Source of the DNA: a virus
Strand: one strand, 5' to 3'
IMG/VR virus record: IMGVR_UViG_3300045988_049759
DNA: 45,961 nt
Below the pieces are notes generated by a model. The model saw only the letters and a list, made by a program, of their open reading frames with translations. It was not told the origin of the DNA and did not search any database. Shown here piece after piece: positions 2,443 through 14,162 of the stretch. Position 1 is the stretch's first letter. Each line of letters opens with the position of its first letter. The position numbers and the translations under genes were made by a program.

Positions 2443-2874
2443 ATGTCTAAATTCGCTAAATTTATGAAGGCTAACAAAGCCGTAAAAGAGAACGGTTTTT
2501 ACCCGGCAACAAAATCCCTTTGTGATGAAAAGGGCAACCCCCTTGATTGGGAGTTCAAGCACATTACTTCAAAGGAAAATGAGGAAATCCGGGAAAGCTG
2601 CACGATTGATATTCCCGTTACGGGCAAGCCGAATATGTACCGTCCGAAACTGAAAAGCAGCCTTTACATTCAGCGTATGATTGCGGCTTCCGTGGTTATG
2701 CCTGATCTGTTCGATTCTGAATTGCAGGACAGCTACGGAGTGAAAACCCCGGAAGATTTGCTGATGGCAATGGTGGACGATCCCGGCGAATACAACGATT
2801 TGGCGGCTTTCGTTCAGAAATTTCAGGGCTTCAATGTTTCCTTTGAGGATAAGGTGAATGAAGCAAAAAACTAA
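2443..2874 (+). CDS. Tail assembly chaperone, short form (XkdN-like)
   Basis: MSKFAKFMKANK... starts at ATG 2443 after AAAGGAAG. It sits between the tube and tape-measure genes. Confidence 0.75.
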   Translation: MSKFAKFMKANKAVKENGFYPATKSLCDEKGNPLDWEFKHITSKENEEIRESCTIDIPVTGKPNMYRPKLKSSLYIQRMIAASVVMPDLFDSELQDSYGVKTPEDLLMAMVDDPGEYNDLAAFVQKFQGFNVSFEDKVNEAKN

Positions 2875-3065
2875 TTGAAGAAGGGGATTGGGAAGCAAAT
2901 TTCGCTTACTATGCCCTTCTTAAACTTCATATATTGCCTTCTGTTTTCCTTGCTATGGATGAACAGGAAAAGGCTTTCACCGTTGCGGCAATCAAGGTGA
3001 AAATTGAAGCTGACAAGAAAGAGAAAAAACGGATTGAAAGTAAATCCAAAAAGAAAGGTAGGTGA
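2443..3065 (+). CDS. Tail assembly chaperone, long form via -1 frameshift at 2865..2871
   Basis: The extension LIEEGDWEANFAYYALLKLHILPSVFLAMDEQEKAFTVAAIKVKIEADKKEKKRIESKSKKKGR has no start codon of its own. It ends 6 nt before the tape-measure ATG. Confidence 0.65.
2865..2871 (+). promoter_or_regulatory. Candidate -1 programmed frameshift slippery heptamer A_AAA_AAC
   Basis: The heptamer is in X_XXY_YYZ phase, one codon before the chaperone stop. The -1 frame stays open for 64 more codons, to TGA 3063..3065. Confidence 0.7.
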
Positions 3066-3070
3066 TCCGC

Positions 3071-5797
3071 ATGGCTACAATCAGAACAGCGATTGAATTA
3101 CAAGACAACTTCACGGGGGTTTTGTATCAGGTAATCAATTCCGTAAATTTGGGGCTTTCCGCTATGGAAGATTTGCACCAAACCATGAATAGCCCTGTTG
3201 ATACGGCTTCCATTGAAGCGGCAAGGGATTCAATCAATCAGGCTACGCTTGCGGTTCAACAGTTGGATGCAGCTATGCAGGGACTTGAAACCCCCGCTTC
3301 CGAAACACCTACCGCCCCGACAAATTCAGCCCCGGTTGTGCTTCCGGTGCAGCCGGATATTCCTGATCCGTTAGTGGATCAACCCGCCCCTGTTGATTTG
3401 CCTGTTGAACCGGAACAGCCTGAACCCGTGCAAGTTCCGGTTCACTGGCGATCTGACAACATGGAAGTATTTACTTCAACGGGCGTTGAACGCTTTGAAC
3501 AGGAAGTTCAAAGTGCAAACAATATGTTGAACACCTTGAACCAAACGCAAAGCAGGATTGCAGCACAGGCGGCACAAACAGATTTGTTCCCGGATAATGC
3601 TATTGCCGATATGAACAATATGCAAAACCGCTTGCAAGCAATTCAGCAGCGTATTCAGACAATCGAAAGCAACCCCCTGAATATGGGTTCTGATACCGCA
3701 AATGCAGAATTGGAACAGTTACGGGGGCAGTTGGATCAGGCAGTTCAGGAACAGGAAGCGTTGAACCGTGCTGTTGAAAACATGGATGTTGAAGCAGCCA
3801 ATCAAGCCTATTTGCGGTTATCTCAAACGGTAGGTAATACTGAAAGATATATCCGGGATAATGTTGACGAACAAGGGCGGTTCAATCGTGAAATTGAAGA
3901 AGGCACGAATGAAGCCGATTCCCTCATGCAGACAATCAAGGGGGCGGTTGCGGCTTATGCCACAATTCAAACCCTTTCAACAGCGTTGAATCTATCGGAT
4001 CAGCTTACTTCTACAACCGCCCGCTTGAATCTGATGAATGACGGATTGCAAACCACACAGGATTTGCAAAACATGATTTATCTTTCAGCGGAACGGGCAA
4101 GGGGCAGCTATCAGGCAACCGCTGATGCCGTTTCCAAACTTGGACTTATGGCGGGTGATGCGTTTGGGAGTTCGGAAGAAATCATTGCCTTCATGGAACA
4201 AGTAAACAAGCAGTTCACTATTGCCGGAACAGAAGCAGCGGGCATTGATGCCGCTATGTTGCAGCTTACACAGGCTATGGGTTCGGGTGTTCTTCGTGGT
4301 GAAGAATACAACAGTATTTTGGAACAAGCCCCGAATATCATTCAAGCGATTGCTGATTACATGGAAGTTCCCAAAGGGCAATTAAAGGATATGGCAGCGG
4401 AAGGGCAAATTACCGCCGATATTGTAAAGGCGGCTATGTTTGCGGCGGCTGATGATACCAACGCAAAATTTGAAAGTATGCCGAAAACCTTTTCGCAGAT
4501 TTGGACTTCTTTTCAGAATACCGCTTTGATGGCGTTTCAGCCTGTTCTTCAACGAATGAATGAAATTGCCAACAGTGAAGCATTTCAAGAGTTCGTGAAC
4601 AACGCTATTGAAGGGCTTTCAATGGTGGCGGGCATTGCCCTTGAAATCTTTGATTTGCTTGTAGGTGTTGCGGGTGCGGTGGCTGATAATTGGTCGTGGC
4701 TATCCCCTATCATTTACGGTGTAGCAGCCGCCCTTGCGGTTTATTATGGGTGGTTGTTGCTGACAAAAGGGGCTGAAATGGCTATGGCGGCGGTTCACGG
4801 GATCGTTGCGGTAGCAAAGGGCATAATGGCAGCGGCTACAATGCTTGTAACGGGTGCAACATGGGCTGAAACAACCGCACAATACGGGCTGAACGCTGCA
4901 ATGTACGCTTGCCCTATCGTGTGGATAATCATTCTTATAATCGCCCTGATTGCCCTGTTCTATGCGGCGGTGGCAGCGGTGAATAAATTCGCCGGAACTT
5001 CCGTTTCCGCAACGGGTATTATTTGCGGGGCGTTCATGGTTGCCCTTGCGTTCATAGGCAATATTTTTGTTGCCTTGTGGAATTTGGTTGTTGATGTGTT
5101 CGTGCTGATTTACAACCTTGTGGCAACCGTGGCAAACTTTATCGGCAATGTGTTCACCGATCCTATCGGGGCAGTTTGCCGATTATTCTTTGATTTGGCT
5201 GATACCGTGCTTGGAATTCTTCAAGCGTTGGCTTCGGCTATTGATGCAATCTTCGGTTCAAACCTTGCGGGAAGTGTTCAGGGTTGGCGTGATTCTCTTG
5301 GCGGTTGGGTAGATGATACCTTCGGCAAGGGTGAAGAAGTCATGGCGAAAATGAACGCTGACGATATGAAACTTGGTCGGTTTGAATACGGGGCGGCTTG
5401 GGATGCCGGATATTCCTTCGGTGAAGGCATTGATGAAAGCATTGCGAATTTCGATCCTTCCAGTTTGTTTAATACCAATGTACCCGGTGCGGATGATTAC
5501 GCAAATTTGGGAAACTACGGTTCAGGCATTGGCGGGATTGGAAGCGGTGTTGATGATATTGCCGGAAACACCGGAAAAATCGCTGACAGCATGGATATTA
5601 CAGAAGAAGATTTGAAATATCTTCGTGATATTGCAGAGCAGGAAGCGGTGAACAGATTTACAACCGCTGAAATTACCATTGAACAGACGAACCACAACAC
5701 CGTTTCCGGTAAAATGGATTTGGATGGTATTGTTTCAGGGCTAACAGATGCGGCAAATGAAGCGGTTGACAGAATAGCGGAAGGGGTGCATGAGTAA
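3071..5797 (+). CDS. Tail tape measure protein
   Basis: About 908 aa. Contains the core motif LTQAMGSGVLRGEEYNSILEQAPNIIQAIADYM and a long hydrophobic segment. ATG 3071 is preferred over GTG 3062. Confidence 0.9.
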   Translation: MATIRTAIELQDNFTGVLYQVINSVNLGLSAMEDLHQTMNSPVDTASIEAARDSINQATLAVQQLDAAMQGLETPASETPTAPTNSAPVVLPVQPDIPDPLVDQPAPVDLPVEPEQPEPVQVPVHWRSDNMEVFTSTGVERFEQEVQSANNMLNTLNQTQSRIAAQAAQTDLFPDNAIADMNNMQNRLQAIQQRIQTIESNPLNMGSDTANAELEQLRGQLDQAVQEQEALNRAVENMDVEAANQAYLRLSQTVGNTERYIRDNVDEQGRFNREIEEGTNEADSLMQTIKGAVAAYATIQTLSTALNLSDQLTSTTARLNLMNDGLQTTQDLQNMIYLSAERARGSYQATADAVSKLGLMAGDAFGSSEEIIAFMEQVNKQFTIAGTEAAGIDAAMLQLTQAMGSGVLRGEEYNSILEQAPNIIQAIADYMEVPKGQLKDMAAEGQITADIVKAAMFAAADDTNAKFESMPKTFSQIWTSFQNTALMAFQPVLQRMNEIANSEAFQEFVNNAIEGLSMVAGIALEIFDLLVGVAGAVADNWSWLSPIIYGVAAALAVYYGWLLLTKGAEMAMAAVHGIVAVAKGIMAAATMLVTGATWAETTAQYGLNAAMYACPIVWIIILIIALIALFYAAVAAVNKFAGTSVSATGIICGAFMVALAFIGNIFVALWNLVVDVFVLIYNLVATVANFIGNVFTDPIGAVCRLFFDLADTVLGILQALASAIDAIFGSNLAGSVQGWRDSLGGWVDDTFGKGEEVMAKMNADDMKLGRFEYGAAWDAGYSFGEGIDESIANFDPSSLFNTNVPGADDYANLGNYGSGIGGIGSGVDDIAGNTGKIADSMDITEEDLKYLRDIAEQEAVNRFTTAEITIEQTNHNTVSGKMDLDGIVSGLTDAANEAVDRIAEGVHE

Positions 5798-10289: not shown

Positions 10290-12047
10290 ATGGCAGAATT
10301 TTCAAAGTTGGTTATCACCAACAAAGGGCAAGCGTTACTTGCAAAAATGATTGCGGGAAGCGGCAACATTGAGTTCACCAAAATTTCAGCTTCCAGCACC
10401 GCATACACGGATGCACAGCTTGAAGGGCTTACTTCCCTTTCCAATGTGAAGCAAACAAGCCTGATTTCCAAAGTTACCCGCACAAATGAGGTTGCAATCA
10501 AGGTTGAAGCAGCCTTCACGAATACCGAACTGAAAGCCGGGTATTACATGAAGGCTTTGGGCTTGTATGCGGTTGATCCTGATGCGGGTGAAATCCTCTA
10601 TGCCGTAACAAGGGAAACTTCCGGGAATTGCTATATGCCCGCCTATAACGGTATTACCGTTTCGGGTGCGTATGTGCAGCTTGTAACTACGGTTGGAAAC
10701 GCTGAAAATGTTTCCCTTGAAGTGGATCAGGCGGCGGTTGCTACAATCGGGGATATTCAGGAGTTGCAGAAGCAGATAGCAGACCTTGAAGCCTTTATCG
10801 GCTATTCCGCTGATGATATTTACGGCGTGGAAGTGGACTTTGTAAACAAGAGATTTACCCGCCTTTCCGGGGCGGTAAACCGTACACCGGGGGCAGGGTT
10901 TGATTCAATCAATGCCTTTGGCGGGCGTAAACGCTGCAATGTTGCGGATGATGGTACAGTAACCGCCTATTATGGGGATTCAGGCTATACCACAACCGGA
11001 AAGAACGCAGCCGGAACAAAGGTTCAGGTTATGGTTGAACAGCCTAAATTCTATTACAAGGTTGTTCCTATGGTGCTTGAAAAGGGTGCAAAGGGCATGA
11101 AGATCAGGAAAGCCCGCTATTATGTTTCGGACACCCTGAAACCCGGCTTCAAGGTTCACCCCGCCTTTGTGGAAAATGGCAATGTGAACCCGTATATTTA
11201 CCTTGCAGCCTTTGAAGGTTCGCTGTTCGACACTTCCGCAAACGCCTATATTTTGGACGATGCACAGGTGGCAGATTTCGCCGCTGATGTGCTTTGCAGT
11301 ATTGCAAACGCAAAGCCCGCTTCCGGTTTAACGCAAAATCTGACAAGGGCGAACACCCGAAAGCTGGCACAAAAGAGGGGTAAAGGTTGGGAACAGGCAT
11401 ATGCCGCAACAATCGCCGCTTCGCAGCTTTTGATGCTGATTGAATACGCTTCTTTCGATATGCAGAAAGCGATTGGCAACGGCGTTGTCAACAAAACAGA
11501 TGATGGCAGCACTTCCATGACAGAGATCACCGGGGCAACCGTGAATTTGGGTAACGCTTCCGGTTCTGTTACCAATATCAACGGTTACAACATTGTTTCC
11601 TATCGTGGTGAAGAAAACATTTGGGGTAACATTTGGGCTTGGATTGACGGCATGAACGAGGAAAACCCGGCAACTTTCGCAGCGGGCGATTGTGGAACGC
11701 TTTATGTTGCGGATCATGGCTTTGTTGATGATAGCAAAGCAAGCCCCTATAAGAACACCGGAATTCACCCCGATTACGGCAACGGCTATATTTCCGCTTT
11801 CGGCTATTCGGAAGAATTTGATTGGTTGTTCGTTATGGCTGAACACACGGGCAATTCCACCCTTCCCGTTGGTGACTACTCTTGGAATAGTAATCCCGGC
11901 TGGCGGGTTACTGAGTTGGGCGGTAGATGGGATAGCGGTGCTAGTGCGGGTTCTTTCTATTGGACTCTGATTGATGCTGCTTCTCTTCGTTATCGGAGTA
12001 TCGGCGGGCGGTTGGTGTATGTACCTTCCAAAAAGGAAGCCGCTTAA
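10290..12047 (+). CDS. Tail fibre / receptor-binding protein; DGR target with a C-terminal variable region
   Basis: 585 aa, last large gene of the tail module. The C-terminus GGRWDSGASAGSFYWTLIDAASLRYRSIGGRL is the lectin-fold-type motif typical of DGR targets and is homologous to the TR. Confidence 0.85.
   Translation: MAEFSKLVITNKGQALLAKMIAGSGNIEFTKISASSTAYTDAQLEGLTSLSNVKQTSLISKVTRTNEVAIKVEAAFTNTELKAGYYMKALGLYAVDPDAGEILYAVTRETSGNCYMPAYNGITVSGAYVQLVTTVGNAENVSLEVDQAAVATIGDIQELQKQIADLEAFIGYSADDIYGVEVDFVNKRFTRLSGAVNRTPGAGFDSINAFGGRKRCNVADDGTVTAYYGDSGYTTTGKNAAGTKVQVMVEQPKFYYKVVPMVLEKGAKGMKIRKARYYVSDTLKPGFKVHPAFVENGNVNPYIYLAAFEGSLFDTSANAYILDDAQVADFAADVLCSIANAKPASGLTQNLTRANTRKLAQKRGKGWEQAYAATIAASQLLMLIEYASFDMQKAIGNGVVNKTDDGSTSMTEITGATVNLGNASGSVTNINGYNIVSYRGEENIWGNIWAWIDGMNEENPATFAAGDCGTLYVADHGFVDDSKASPYKNTGIHPDYGNGYISAFGYSEEFDWLFVMAEHTGNSTLPVGDYSWNSNPGWRVTELGGRWDSGASAGSFYWTLIDAASLRYRSIGGRLVYVPSKKEAA
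11906..12021 (+). repeat. DGR variable region (VR)
   Basis: Ungapped 116-bp alignment to 12155..12270. There are 25 mismatches, all at TR adenines. Confidence 0.9.
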
Positions 12048-12154
12048 CACCGTTGAACAAACATTGAAAAATTGAATAAAAATCGGTAGTTCAGGGAGTA
12101 TTGTTGTTTACAATCCGGTTGAACAGACGGCACTAAAACAGAAACCATGAAAAA

Positions 12155-12270
12155 GGTTACTAAATTAGGCAGTAAATGGAATAACAGTGCTAATGCAGGT
12201 ACTTTCTATTGGAATCTGAATAATGCTACTTCTAATCGTAATCGGAATATCAGCAGGCAGTTAGTAAATG
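12155..12270 (+). repeat. DGR template region (TR)
   Basis: Intergenic copy with 40 adenines. In the VR reading frame it carries 10 AAY codons. The 5' boundary may extend to about 12150 (aaaaa). Confidence 0.9.
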
Positions 12271-12466
12271 CACGATTCAGGCGGGGATTTTCCCCGCCTG
12301 TTTCAATATAAATCTGTATTCCTGAAAGACCGTGCCACATGGCAAAACAGACAGCCCCCGAAAGGGGGAAGTTAAAAATAAAATTTGGTCGTGTTGGTAG
12401 ACTTTGAAAGTTAATTTTCAAAGGTTGAAGATTCGGCTGATGTGCATACAAAAGGAACATTCAACA
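12271..12466 (+). ncRNA. TR-RT spacer; probable structured 3' part of the DGR RNA
   Basis: Three hairpins: aggcgggga-ttt-tccccgcct (12279..12299), ccccc-GAAA-ggggg (12355..12368) and ctttgaaa-gttaat-tttcaaag (12402..12423). Confidence 0.5.
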
Positions 12467-13594
12467 ATGAAGCGATATGGGAATCTATACGAACAAATTT
12501 ATTCTATGGATAACCTACGCAAAGCACACCAAAACGCACGGAAGGGAAAGGGATGGTATGAGGAAGTAAAAGCGGTTGATGCAGATGTAGAAGGCTATTT
12601 GAAACGCCTTCAAGAAATGCTTATCAATCACACCTACCAAACTTCACCTTACGAAAAATTTATCAAGCATGACAGCGGCAAAGACCGGGAGATTTTCAAA
12701 CTTCCTTACTTCCCGGATCGTATTTGTCAATGGGCGATTCTGCAAGTGATTGAACCGTATCTAATGCGGCACATGACAAAGAATACCTATTCAGCGATAC
12801 CCAAAAGAGGAATTCACGCAGCGTTGCATGATGTTCAAGATGCAATGTGGAAGGATGTTCCGAATTGCCAATATTGCTTGAAGCTGGATGTAAGGCACTA
12901 TTACCCTTCAATAAATCACGATATTTTGAAAGCAAAGTTCAGACGGGTTTTCAAAGATGGTGAATTGCTTTGGTTGTTGGATGAAATCATAGATAGCATT
13001 TGCACCGCTAACATTGAAGATATTCGTGATCTTTGGTTCTTCGATGAAGATGTTGATGAAGAAACCGGAATACCAATAGGGAACTACCTTTCCCAATATT
13101 GCGGAAACTTCTATCTTTCTGATTTTGACCACTGGATCAAAGAAGAAAAGCGGGTGAAGCATTACTTCCGTTACATGGATGATATTGTGATTTTCGGCAG
13201 CAGCAAAGAAGAACTTCATGCCCTGAAACGGGAAATTGATGTTTATTTCATGCAGGAATTACGGTTGACAGTCAAAGGGAATTGGCAAGTGTTCCCTTCC
13301 TATGTGCGGGGTGTTGATTTTGTCGGTTATCGAACCTTCCTAAATTATACCTTGCTTCGCAAGAGTAGTTGCACCAACTTCAAGAAAAAGATGGTAGCAA
13401 TCAGGAAGAAAACAGCAGGCGGGCAAATGATGAACTATTCTGAATGGTGTTCCGTGAATTCCTATAAGGGATGGCTAAAGCATTGTGACAGTTACCGCTT
13501 GCGGAAAAAGTACATTGCACCAATTCAAGACGATGCAGACCGATATTATCGGGATGTTGTCAAAACCAAAAAATATAAAAGAAAGGCGGCGTAA
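12467..13594 (+). CDS. DGR reverse transcriptase
   Basis: MKRYGNLYEQIYSMDNLRKAHQNARKGK N-terminus, IGNYLSQ motif (DGR-type [ILV]GxxxSQ) and the catalytic motif YMDD within FRYMDDIVIFG. ATG 12467 follows AAAGGA. Confidence 0.9.
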   Translation: MKRYGNLYEQIYSMDNLRKAHQNARKGKGWYEEVKAVDADVEGYLKRLQEMLINHTYQTSPYEKFIKHDSGKDREIFKLPYFPDRICQWAILQVIEPYLMRHMTKNTYSAIPKRGIHAALHDVQDAMWKDVPNCQYCLKLDVRHYYPSINHDILKAKFRRVFKDGELLWLLDEIIDSICTANIEDIRDLWFFDEDVDEETGIPIGNYLSQYCGNFYLSDFDHWIKEEKRVKHYFRYMDDIVIFGSSKEELHALKREIDVYFMQELRLTVKGNWQVFPSYVRGVDFVGYRTFLNYTLLRKSSCTNFKKKMVAIRKKTAGGQMMNYSEWCSVNSYKGWLKHCDSYRLRKKYIAPIQDDADRYYRDVVKTKKYKRKAA

Positions 13595-13597
13595 AAC

Positions 13598-13861
13598 ATG
13601 GTTGACTATGGCAGAGTAAGAAGCACCGTCAAGCCTGAACCCATTGTGATTGATGAATTCAGCGTTTGGCAGCATACCGACATTCAGGAAATTTCTGAAA
13701 ATGTGGGTGAAGAAAATGAATTCGTGGGCTATGAATTCAACATGGTTCAGTACAGCAAGGACGAATTTATTTTGCAACAGGCAACGGACAATGCGGCGTT
13801 GCAGCAGCAGATCACAGATACACAGCTTGCGTTGTGTGAAGTCTATGAACTGATGGGATAA
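13598..13861 (+). CDS. Acidic hypothetical protein (87 aa) after the RT
   Basis: The ATG lies 4 nt after the RT stop. No recognisable motif. Confidence 0.5.
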   Translation: MVDYGRVRSTVKPEPIVIDEFSVWQHTDIQEISENVGEENEFVGYEFNMVQYSKDEFILQQATDNAALQQQITDTQLALCEVYELMG

Positions 13862-13878: not shown

Positions 13879-13989
13879 ATGGCAAAGGTATATGCTGACC
13901 TTATCAGAAAGGGTTTGAAAACCCTTGATGATGTACCGGAAAAACTGAAAGCAGCGGTTCAGGCTTTGGTTGAAGGTGATACAGATTGA
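13879..13989 (+). CDS. Small protein (36 aa), paralog 1: MAKVYADLIRKGLKTLDDVPEKLKAAVQALVEGDTD
   Basis: Below the ORF-track cutoff. SD GGAAGGGGTGA lies 8 nt upstream. Shares the motif VYAxLIxKGxKTxxDVP with 14037..14162. Confidence 0.6.
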   Translation: MAKVYADLIRKGLKTLDDVPEKLKAAVQALVEGDTD

Positions 13990-14036
13990 TTACCAATCTT
14001 ATCATAAAAATTTTGTTCAGAAAGGATGTGGCAGAA

Positions 14037-14162
14037 ATGGCAGTTGTTTATGCAACCCTGATTATCAAGGGCAAGAAAACCTTCGCTGATGTTCCGGCAA
14101 GAATTCAGGAACAGGTGAAGCAGGTTCTGATTGACCTTGATTGCCCTGAACTGGCTGAATAA
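14037..14162 (+). CDS. Small protein (41 aa), paralog 2: MAVVYATLIIKGKKTFADVPARIQEQVKQVLIDLDCPELAE
   Basis: Below the ORF-track cutoff. Shares the N-terminal motif of 13879..13989. Confidence 0.55.
   Translation: MAVVYATLIIKGKKTFADVPARIQEQVKQVLIDLDCPELAE

Follow-up and report, generated by a model that had tools for sequence, protein, structure and literature searches.

A diversity-generating retroelement without an Avd gene and the covariation-supported fold of its spacer RNA

The diversity-generating retroelement (DGR) of phage BPP-1 is the only one that is understood mechanistically, and it needs the accessory protein Avd; about a quarter of DGRs have none. How mutagenic reverse transcription may proceed without Avd is the question raised by a DGR locus in IMGVR_UViG_3300045988_049759, a viral stretch of 46 kb (45,961 nucleotides, nt) that is called the window below. 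In this locus the target gene, which encodes a tail fibre, the template repeat (TR) and the gene of the reverse transcriptase (RT) follow each other in this order on one strand, and there is no accessory gene. Our analysis indicates that the locus is an active Avd-less target–TR–RT DGR of a temperate contractile-tailed phage or prophage of gut Lachnospiraceae, that it diversifies the C-terminal tip of the fibre, and that its RNA adopts a fold backed by covariation. We give this reading a probability of about 0.8. The further proposal, that the Avd-less lineage uses the RNA family RT-17 as a priming and positioning RNA, with the template held by two crossing helices (S1 and P0) and the elements known from BPP-1 permuted, all without Avd, seems to us evenly balanced between true and false.

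Avd-less DGRs with the TR between target and RT have been catalogued since 2017, and the layout itself is ordinary. What is new is a fold, backed by covariation, in which RT-17 is joined to the TR flanks on both sides. If the proposal is true, it would offer for the first time a concrete and testable model of mutagenic reverse transcription without Avd, and would provide a function for an orphan Rfam family. The helices name the exact nucleotides to mutate (12084–12100/12317–12332 and 12268–12273/12442–12447), and the start of the complementary DNA (cDNA) is predicted near TR position 12267. The window lineage is abundant in the human gut virome.

Gene order and diversification of the fibre gene

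The main features of the locus are as follows.

10290..12047, + strand: tail fibre target gene, 585 amino acids (aa), with the variable repeat (VR) at its C-terminus (open reading frame (ORF) list; PF12571)
11906..12021, + strand: VR, a 116-nt ungapped match to the TR
12001..12024, + strand: initiation of mutagenic homing site (IMH), the invariant VR 3′ end CGGCGGGCGGTTGGTGTATGTACC (allele comparison)
12155..12270, + strand: TR, with IMH* at about 12250–12273 (VR alignment)
12467..13594, + strand: DGR RT, 375 aa (RVT_1, E 2e-16)

The last position of the fibre ORF is 12047; the TR begins at 12155, its homology to the VR ends at 12270 and the ATG of the RT lies at 12467. These coordinates agree with an earlier reading of the same DNA (the original prediction), which had placed the TR between target and RT and had given 107 nt from the fibre stop to the TR and 196 nt from the TR to the RT.

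The same reading had called this architecture atypical, which is not the case. A scan of IMG/VR with the RT gave 80 related loci (L-numbers below) at 30–100% identity, and a self-BLAST screen for adenine-biased repeats detected a TR/VR pair in 75 of them. About 70 of the 80, down to 41% RT identity, have a VR–TR gap of 60–220 nt and a TR–RT gap of 90–215 nt; a long VR–TR gap was found only in the most distant loci. The Avd-less target–TR–RT layout is also a published type. The avd gene is missing from 26% of 372 DGRs, and 75 of the 372 have “Architecture A”, a TR–RT core with no accessory gene; RT Lineage 3 as a whole is without avd, and a profile search of those genomes found none elsewhere (PMC5758913). 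In the crAssphage LMMB, the order TG–VR(IMH)–TR(IMH*)–RT without avd was termed the major architecture of Lineage 3 (PMC7290462). The window shares with Architecture A1 and Lineage 3 of Wu et al. 2018, and with LMMB, the gene order, the lack of an accessory gene, the tail-fibre target, the VR at the 3′ end and the IMH/IMH* at the repeat ends. The RTs of crAss-like phages are 38–47% identical to the window RT, that of LMMB (Lineage 3, PMC7290462) 38%, as measured by pairwise identity. Host and phage differ, as the window belongs to a contractile-tailed temperate phage of Lachnospiraceae. A second difference is that IMH and IMH* are reported to be identical in LMMB, whereas those of the window differ at six fixed adenine positions.

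Among proteins of solved structure the best relative of the window RT was bRT of BPP-1 (8ub7_A; E 5e-33, residues 2–316 aligned). Compared with bRT, the window RT has about 59 additional C-terminal residues (317–375) with the basic end KKYKRKAA; its palm region also has an acidic insertion at about residues 155–200.

Comparison of VR and TR revealed 25 mismatches in 116 nt, and 25 of 25 fall on TR adenines (A>G 18, A>T 5, A>C 2). Sixteen loci with near-identical TRs carry 14 distinct VR alleles. Upstream of TR 12250 these alleles are polymorphic at 30 of the 33 adenine sites, and the sites at TR 12171, 12186 and 12197 are G in every allele. The 3′ end of the VR behaves differently. In about 27 related loci CGGCGGGCGGUUGGUGUAUGUACC (12001–12024) is constant, with two single-base exceptions that both equal the TR base, while in the same loci the VR is hypervariable at TR-adenine positions as far as VR 12000. 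At the six TR adenines between 12252 and 12267 the VR always reads G, G, G, G, G, T in the 14 distinct alleles. The TR 3′ end itself hardly differs between relatives. This indicates that VR 12001–12024 is a fixed IMH that is not overwritten, and the boundary of information transfer lies between VR 12000 and 12003. The suggestion that the A>G differences at this boundary are a fixed IMH/IMH* pair, to be recognised by comparing VR alleles across relatives, is thus supported: the end is invariant and the adenine sites upstream vary.

It might be argued that this end was mutated at its adenines like the rest and then kept constant by purifying selection on the fibre, so that no segment is excluded from transfer and no true IMH exists. 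The fixed codons translate to GGRLVY, which could plausibly be a structural segment, and the three upstream sites named above are likewise fixed as G in all alleles. However, two of the six fixed differences, TTA>TTG and GTA>GTG, are third-position changes that leave the amino acid the same, and they are nevertheless invariant in 14 of 14 distinct alleles, so selection at the protein level cannot account for the invariance. The switch from variable to fixed is also sharp. We consider selection of this kind a very improbable explanation, and retain exclusion from transfer as the reason for the constant VR end.

Two relatives have more than one VR. L050 (VRs at 1738–1849 and 3390–3501) has two adenine-mismatched VRs for a single TR, so that one cassette serves two targets, and L061 (VRs at 3208–3275 and 3636–3704) likewise has two adenine-mismatched VRs per single TR. 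An ATG ORF of 54 aa with a basic product (12147–12311) crosses the TR of the window in a frame equivalent to that of the VR, and counterparts of 61–92 aa occur in relatives. It is probably not a gene, because no obvious ribosome-binding site precedes it.

Structure and covariation of the spacer RNA

The RNA elements around the TR and in the TR–RT spacer are as follows.

12084..12100, + strand: S1 5′ strand, upstream of the TR; pairs with 12317–12332
12268..12273, + strand: P0 5′ strand AUGCAC, at the TR 3′ end; pairs with 12442–12447
12278..12300, + strand: P1, GC-rich hairpin and short U-run just after the TR (folding)
12317..12332, + strand: S1 3′ strand, immediately 5′ of P2 (RNAduplex, covariation)
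12333..12350, + strand: P2, hairpin UGCC-ACAU-GGCA (12333–12344) followed by AAAACA (covariation)
12355..12368, + strand: P2.1, hairpin CCCCC-GAAA-GGGGG, a lineage-specific insertion (relatives)
12385..12440, + strand: P3, long stem with internal loops, inner stem 12402–12409/12416–12423 (RT-17, covariation)
12442..12450, + strand: P0 3′ strand GUGCAU followed by a conserved ACA; candidate primer strand (priming by analogy)

The spacer as a whole (12262–12455) is stable, at −68.6 kcal/mol against −43.7 for shuffled sequences (z −5.8). Positions 12350–12451 match the Rfam family RF03020 (RT-17) with 46.8 bits (gathering score 40.4, E 3.8e-7), and RT-17 was found at the gathering score in 23 of the 40 relatives scanned (41–70 bits); nearly all of these matches end some 15 nt short of the RT start. 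Weinberg et al. 2017 described RT-17 among 19 RT-adjacent motifs, of which RT-10 was shown to be the TR–RT spacer of BPP-1 and a DGR role of the others was speculation only (PMC5737381). The likeness of the window to RT-17 consists of the above-threshold match, the place directly 5′ of an RT gene, the same two hairpins and the conserved 3′ tail. Membership of the spacer in RT-17 is already covered by Rfam and is not new. The Rfam description states no function, and the pairings of S1 and P0 with the flanks lie outside the Rfam model.

P0 was discovered by RNAalifold on a structure-blind MAFFT alignment of 12 spacers, which recovers P0, P2 and P3. On the MAFFT alignment 95.8% of the P0 cells are paired and three of its six pairs are compensatory; the figures are 97.6% and five of six on an alignment of 54 distinct sequences to a covariance model (CM). 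Its variants include AUGUGAGA/UCUCACAU, UGUACGAA/UUCGUACA and AUGCAA/UUGCAU. P0 is present in the minimum free energy fold of the single sequence too, and its 3′ strand corresponds in the RT-17 model to the conserved tail ‘GCAgACAa’ at the 3′ end.

The partner of S1 was found by RNAduplex: in nearly every locus the 13–16 nt just 5′ of P2 pair with a segment upstream of the TR, although the sequences are wholly different, as in GGGUAAACAAUC/GAUUGUUUACCC, GGGCAGAAGUGAA/UUCACUUCUGCCC and AGGCAUUUGAUA/UAUCAAAUGCCU. In register, 88% of the S1 cells are paired, and the covariation score is 0.83 against 0.20 after shuffling. In a register-free control with 13-mers, the mean energy was −16.3 kcal/mol for the cognate upstream region and −7.8 kcal/mol for non-cognate ones, and 33 of 36 loci had a cognate region that less than 5% of the non-cognate ones could equal.

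Between these strands lies P2, whose region CCGUGCCACAUGGCAAAACA (12330–12349), a tetraloop hairpin of 4 bp followed by adenosines, is the most conserved spacer element and can be followed down to 41% RT identity. Its stem covaries (UGCC/GGCA, UACC/GGUA, CACC/GGUG, UGGC/GCCA). P2 is the true counterpart of the RT-17 5′ hairpin: in L017, which has no insertion, the Rfam match begins at P2. In the window, the extra GAAA hairpin of 20-odd nt between the two hairpins of the model misleads it. Both the Rfam RT-17 model and our own CM took P2.1 for the 5′ hairpin, and this explains the low RT-17 score of the window.

P3, folded as 12384–12436, has −10.9 kcal/mol (z −1.9). Its outer and inner helices are 92% paired with 13 of 14 pairs compensatory, and its internal loop GGUAGA/GGUUGAAG is a predicted sarcin–ricin motif. 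JAR3D predicts such a motif in RT-17 (loop 3) and in RT-10, and in RT-10 it is seen in structures from cryogenic electron microscopy (cryo-EM) (PMC13085918); loop 3 of RT-17 in that work is taken here as the P3 internal loop.

For P0, P2 and P3 together, 92% of cells are paired with 16 compensatory pairs by the MAFFT-only count (none of 500 shuffles was as good), and 93.7% are paired with 21 of 24 pairs compensatory among the 54 distinct CM-aligned sequences. Thirteen unpaired cells at one P2 pair in the CM count are an alignment artefact, as our CM (R1) mis-aligns P2 in the window lineage. Covariation thus supports a predicted RNA from about 12084 to about 12450 that contains S1, P2 with AAAACA, an A-rich single strand, P3 and P0. 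Since S1 and P0 cross, the predicted fold is pseudoknot-like, with the TR looped out between them. No report of a fold by S1 and P0 that ties RT-17 to both TR flanks was found in the searchable literature.

The original prediction had described the spacer as structured by three stable hairpins (P1, P2.1 and the inner stem of P3) and consistent with a self-priming RNA; S1, P0 and P2 were not mentioned in it. All three hairpins fold, and the structured, conserved nature of the spacer stands, while self-priming can be proposed by analogy. Conservation is another matter, as two of the three do not have it. The third, in P3, is real and covaries. P1 has −20.4 kcal/mol (z −5.4) and occurs in 21 of 36 distinct relatives, with a different sequence each time and usually in the form of an A-tract, a GC stem and a U-tract of 4–5 U; it is absent from the other 15. 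P2.1 (−11.2 kcal/mol, z −3.3) was found only in the closest relatives, L001–L016 (RT identity at least 83%), and is absent from L017 (82%), L018 (81%) and most of the more distant loci. Unrelated hairpins replace it at the same site in L020, L022, L027 and L031. We have therefore rejected the GAAA hairpin as a core element, as it is an insertion confined to the closest relatives.

Most loci also have an AU-rich motif, AAUAUAAAU or UAUAUA, after P1 (12304–12316). A single-stranded linker and a −10-like promoter element are both possible roles for it.

Absence of Avd and comparison with BPP-1

Avd was searched for in 123 six-frame ORFs of 70–230 aa from the whole window, against Pfam (including PF05635 and PF22296, bAvd) and NCBIfam. 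No Avd, bAvd or HRDC was found among the families listed for these 123 ORFs, any further families having E above about 0.001, and ten basic small ORFs scanned again at E ≤ 1 gave no Avd match. The same scan recovered the usual phage families, among them tail tube, sheath initiator, terminase, scaffold, holin and repressors. Avd is not encoded in the window, in agreement with the original prediction, for which a search of the small ORFs against Avd and HRDC profiles had been proposed as a check. The short VR–TR and TR–RT gaps leave no room for avd between VR, TR and RT.

Some distant relatives have longer gaps. In L076–L079 (30% RT identity) a VR–TR gap of 935 nt, at about 2868–3716, holds an ORF of 282 aa, whose C-terminus resembles Pfam bAvd weakly (E about 1e-3, below the curated cut-off) and which may be an Avd fusion. 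L059 (3417–3710) and L060 (3440–3724), both at 44% RT identity, have an ORF of 94–97 aa inside a VR–TR gap of 347–394 nt; as candidates for Avd these ORFs had no Pfam match. The two loci are without a recognisable P2 hairpin.

In the cryo-EM structure of BPP-1, the spacer (Sp) begins with an Avd-binding stem-loop (Sp 3–33). The primer strand of a TR:Sp duplex comes next (Sp 47–56), with priming from A56 and TR G117 as template. Then follows Sp 59–70, which forms a duplex with sequence upstream of the TR and leads into a short tetraloop hairpin and unpaired A-minor adenosines, together the “cPRT Stop”; a single-stranded “thumb ring” and a long bRT-binding stem come after it (bioRxiv 10.1101/2023.10.23.563531). 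The survey for such RNA elements took in Avd-containing DGRs only (bioRxiv 10.1101/2023.10.23.563531). Most of these elements resemble one in the window. The stop element resembles S1, P2 and AAAACA, that is, a duplex of upstream-TR and spacer sequence, a short tetraloop hairpin and unpaired adenosines. The thumb ring resembles the A-rich single strand, and the RT-binding stem resembles P3 with its sarcin–ricin-type loop. P0, which joins the TR 3′ end to the spacer in the right polarity for cis-priming, resembles the template:primer duplex. The stem-loop after the TR resembles P1 by position, although P1 of the window is optional and terminator-shaped. The two systems differ in that Avd is present in BPP-1 and absent here, and in that the primer strand of BPP-1 comes before the stop strand, whereas the candidate primer strand of the window is at the spacer 3′ end, after P3.

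By this analogy, P0 would be the template:primer duplex, and the RT would start the cDNA from the 2′-OH at or next to U12447/A12448. The first template base would be about TR A12267, with copying leftwards. S1, P2 and the adenosines may form the stop element that ends cDNA synthesis near 12101, and P3 may be the RT-binding stem. The arrangement of elements would be permuted relative to BPP-1. P1 would be optional and would most likely serve as a leaky terminator, so that fewer transcripts run on into the spacer and the RT gene.

Several points weigh against this model. The Rfam model RT-10 had no match at E ≤ 10 in the region of the window, nor did it reach the gathering score in any of 40 relatives, so descent of the BPP-1 and window RNAs from one ancestor is not established. 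The order of the elements differs from that of BPP-1, so the analogy may not hold. At its 3′ end the P0 primer strand lacks a conserved A and has U in 43 of 48 sequences. The CM alignment was fitted to the structure and the S1 register was picked by best complementarity, a circularity that is mitigated by the register-free S1 control and by the MAFFT-only pair count. The search for Avd was confined to the 46-kb window, and an Avd encoded by the host would fall outside it. A simple terminator scan of the window did not flag P1, as its tail TTTCAATA is too T-poor. Priming, stopping and independence from Avd are matters that we infer for the window lineage entirely from computed sequence evidence.

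The DGR could depend on Avd after all. The protein would then come from a gene on the host chromosome or in a different prophage, or be a homolog whose sequence has diverged beyond recognition, and P1 would be its binding stem-loop. P1 does lie at the position of the Avd-binding stem-loop of BPP-1 and has a stem of similar length, and the weak bAvd-like domain between VR and TR in the distant outgroup L076–L079 suggests that Avd may be ancestral. But no ORF of the window matched Avd or bAvd, even at E ≤ 1 for the ten best candidates, and P1, being missing in 15 of 36 distinct relatives and of no conserved sequence, is a poor fit to a protein-binding site. Moreover, the same layout occurs in phages of Lachnospiraceae, Enterococcus and Psychrobacillus and in crAss-like phages, and a host Avd for all of them is implausible; the search by Wu et al. 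of genomes with avd-less DGRs also found no avd elsewhere (PMC5758913). We hold an Avd in trans to be quite improbable. Alternatively, the RT-17 spacer might be a cis-regulatory leader of the RT gene, P1 being an attenuator and P3 a sensor, with no part in priming. Against it stand the two covarying helices through which the spacer pairs with sequence on either side of the TR, as a pure RT leader gives no reason for them and they fit the holding of a template as in BPP-1. What a leader would explain is the end of the RNA about 15 nt before the RT start codon, beside the ribosome-binding site, and the terminator shape of P1 in most relatives; P0, however, leaves the ribosome-binding site free. 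A leader function of this kind appears improbable, and an RNA that holds the template for an Avd-independent RT remains the explanation that we prefer.

Neighbouring features, relatives and hosts

Two further features adjoin the DGR.

12025..12039, + strand: weak hairpin cttcc-aaaaa-ggaag, which encodes the last fibre residues (not conserved)
13598..13861, + strand: acidic ORF of 87 aa, a gene of the phage module (isoelectric point 4.05)

The hairpin after the VR had been pointed out as lying where target-recognition cruciforms occur in known DGRs. It does fold (−5.2 kcal/mol, z −4.2), with 5 bp and an AT-rich sequence. In close relatives GGAAG is changed to GGCAG or AGAAG without compensation, and L014–L019 have no hairpin. 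Its role as a cruciform is unsupported and was rejected, because it is not conserved in relatives. A GC-rich inverted repeat (cruciform) of the BPP-1 type was not found just downstream of the IMH, where the window has only this AT-rich hairpin; unlike BPP-1, the window has no conserved inverted repeat after the VR.

The original prediction was right that the small ORF next to the RT is acidic. This 87-aa ORF follows the RT in 52 loci, in which the whole module from fibre to holin is syntenic. In widespread related prophages it directly follows the fibre gene. These prophages (L082–L087, for example L082 at 4887–5001) have a clean deletion of 1.4 kb, which corresponds to window positions 12113–13535 and in which the TR and the spacer are lost together with most of the RT gene. 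They retain the fibre gene, whose VR and IMH are intact, as well as the S1 5′ strand and roughly the final 60 nt of the RT gene. As the 87-aa ORF is retained without the DGR, it is a gene of the phage module and not a part of the DGR. The 87-aa protein of the DGR-less form was found in 527 blocks of the collection, which indicates that loss of the DGR is common. The 87-aa ORF had no Pfam match, and tblastn found no match in 50,697 phage records. CH1 is an acidic protein of 160–169 aa that adjoins avd-less DGRs only (Wu et al. 2018). We rejected the 87-aa ORF as a CH1-like accessory gene, as it has half the size of CH1, which was compared by description only, and persists in DGR-less relatives.

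The fibre gene lies downstream of Baseplate_J and Mu Gp48-like genes. The N-terminus of the fibre is a PF12571 tail-collar fibre domain (E 2e-5), the only fibre domain that Pfam finds in it. Genome matches place the lineage in prophages of Lachnospiraceae and of further Bacillota, with Otoolea muris DSM 111138 and Enterococcus timonensis among the hosts, and the RT of the cultured Psychrobacillus phage Perkons is 51.5% identical; these three provide cultured carriers. No close relative came up when the phage collection was searched at the nucleotide level.

One record, IMGVR_UViG_3300011005_000093 (88,862 bp; L040/L051 and L044/L049), has two different DGR loci about 45 kb apart, with 55% and 52% RT identity to the query; the contig may join two related phage genomes. 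Between the 87-aa ORF and the holin of the window lie two small paralogs of 36 and 58 aa (13879–13989 and 13986–14162), which are about 50% identical, have a weak CD1375-like match and are conserved across the phage group.

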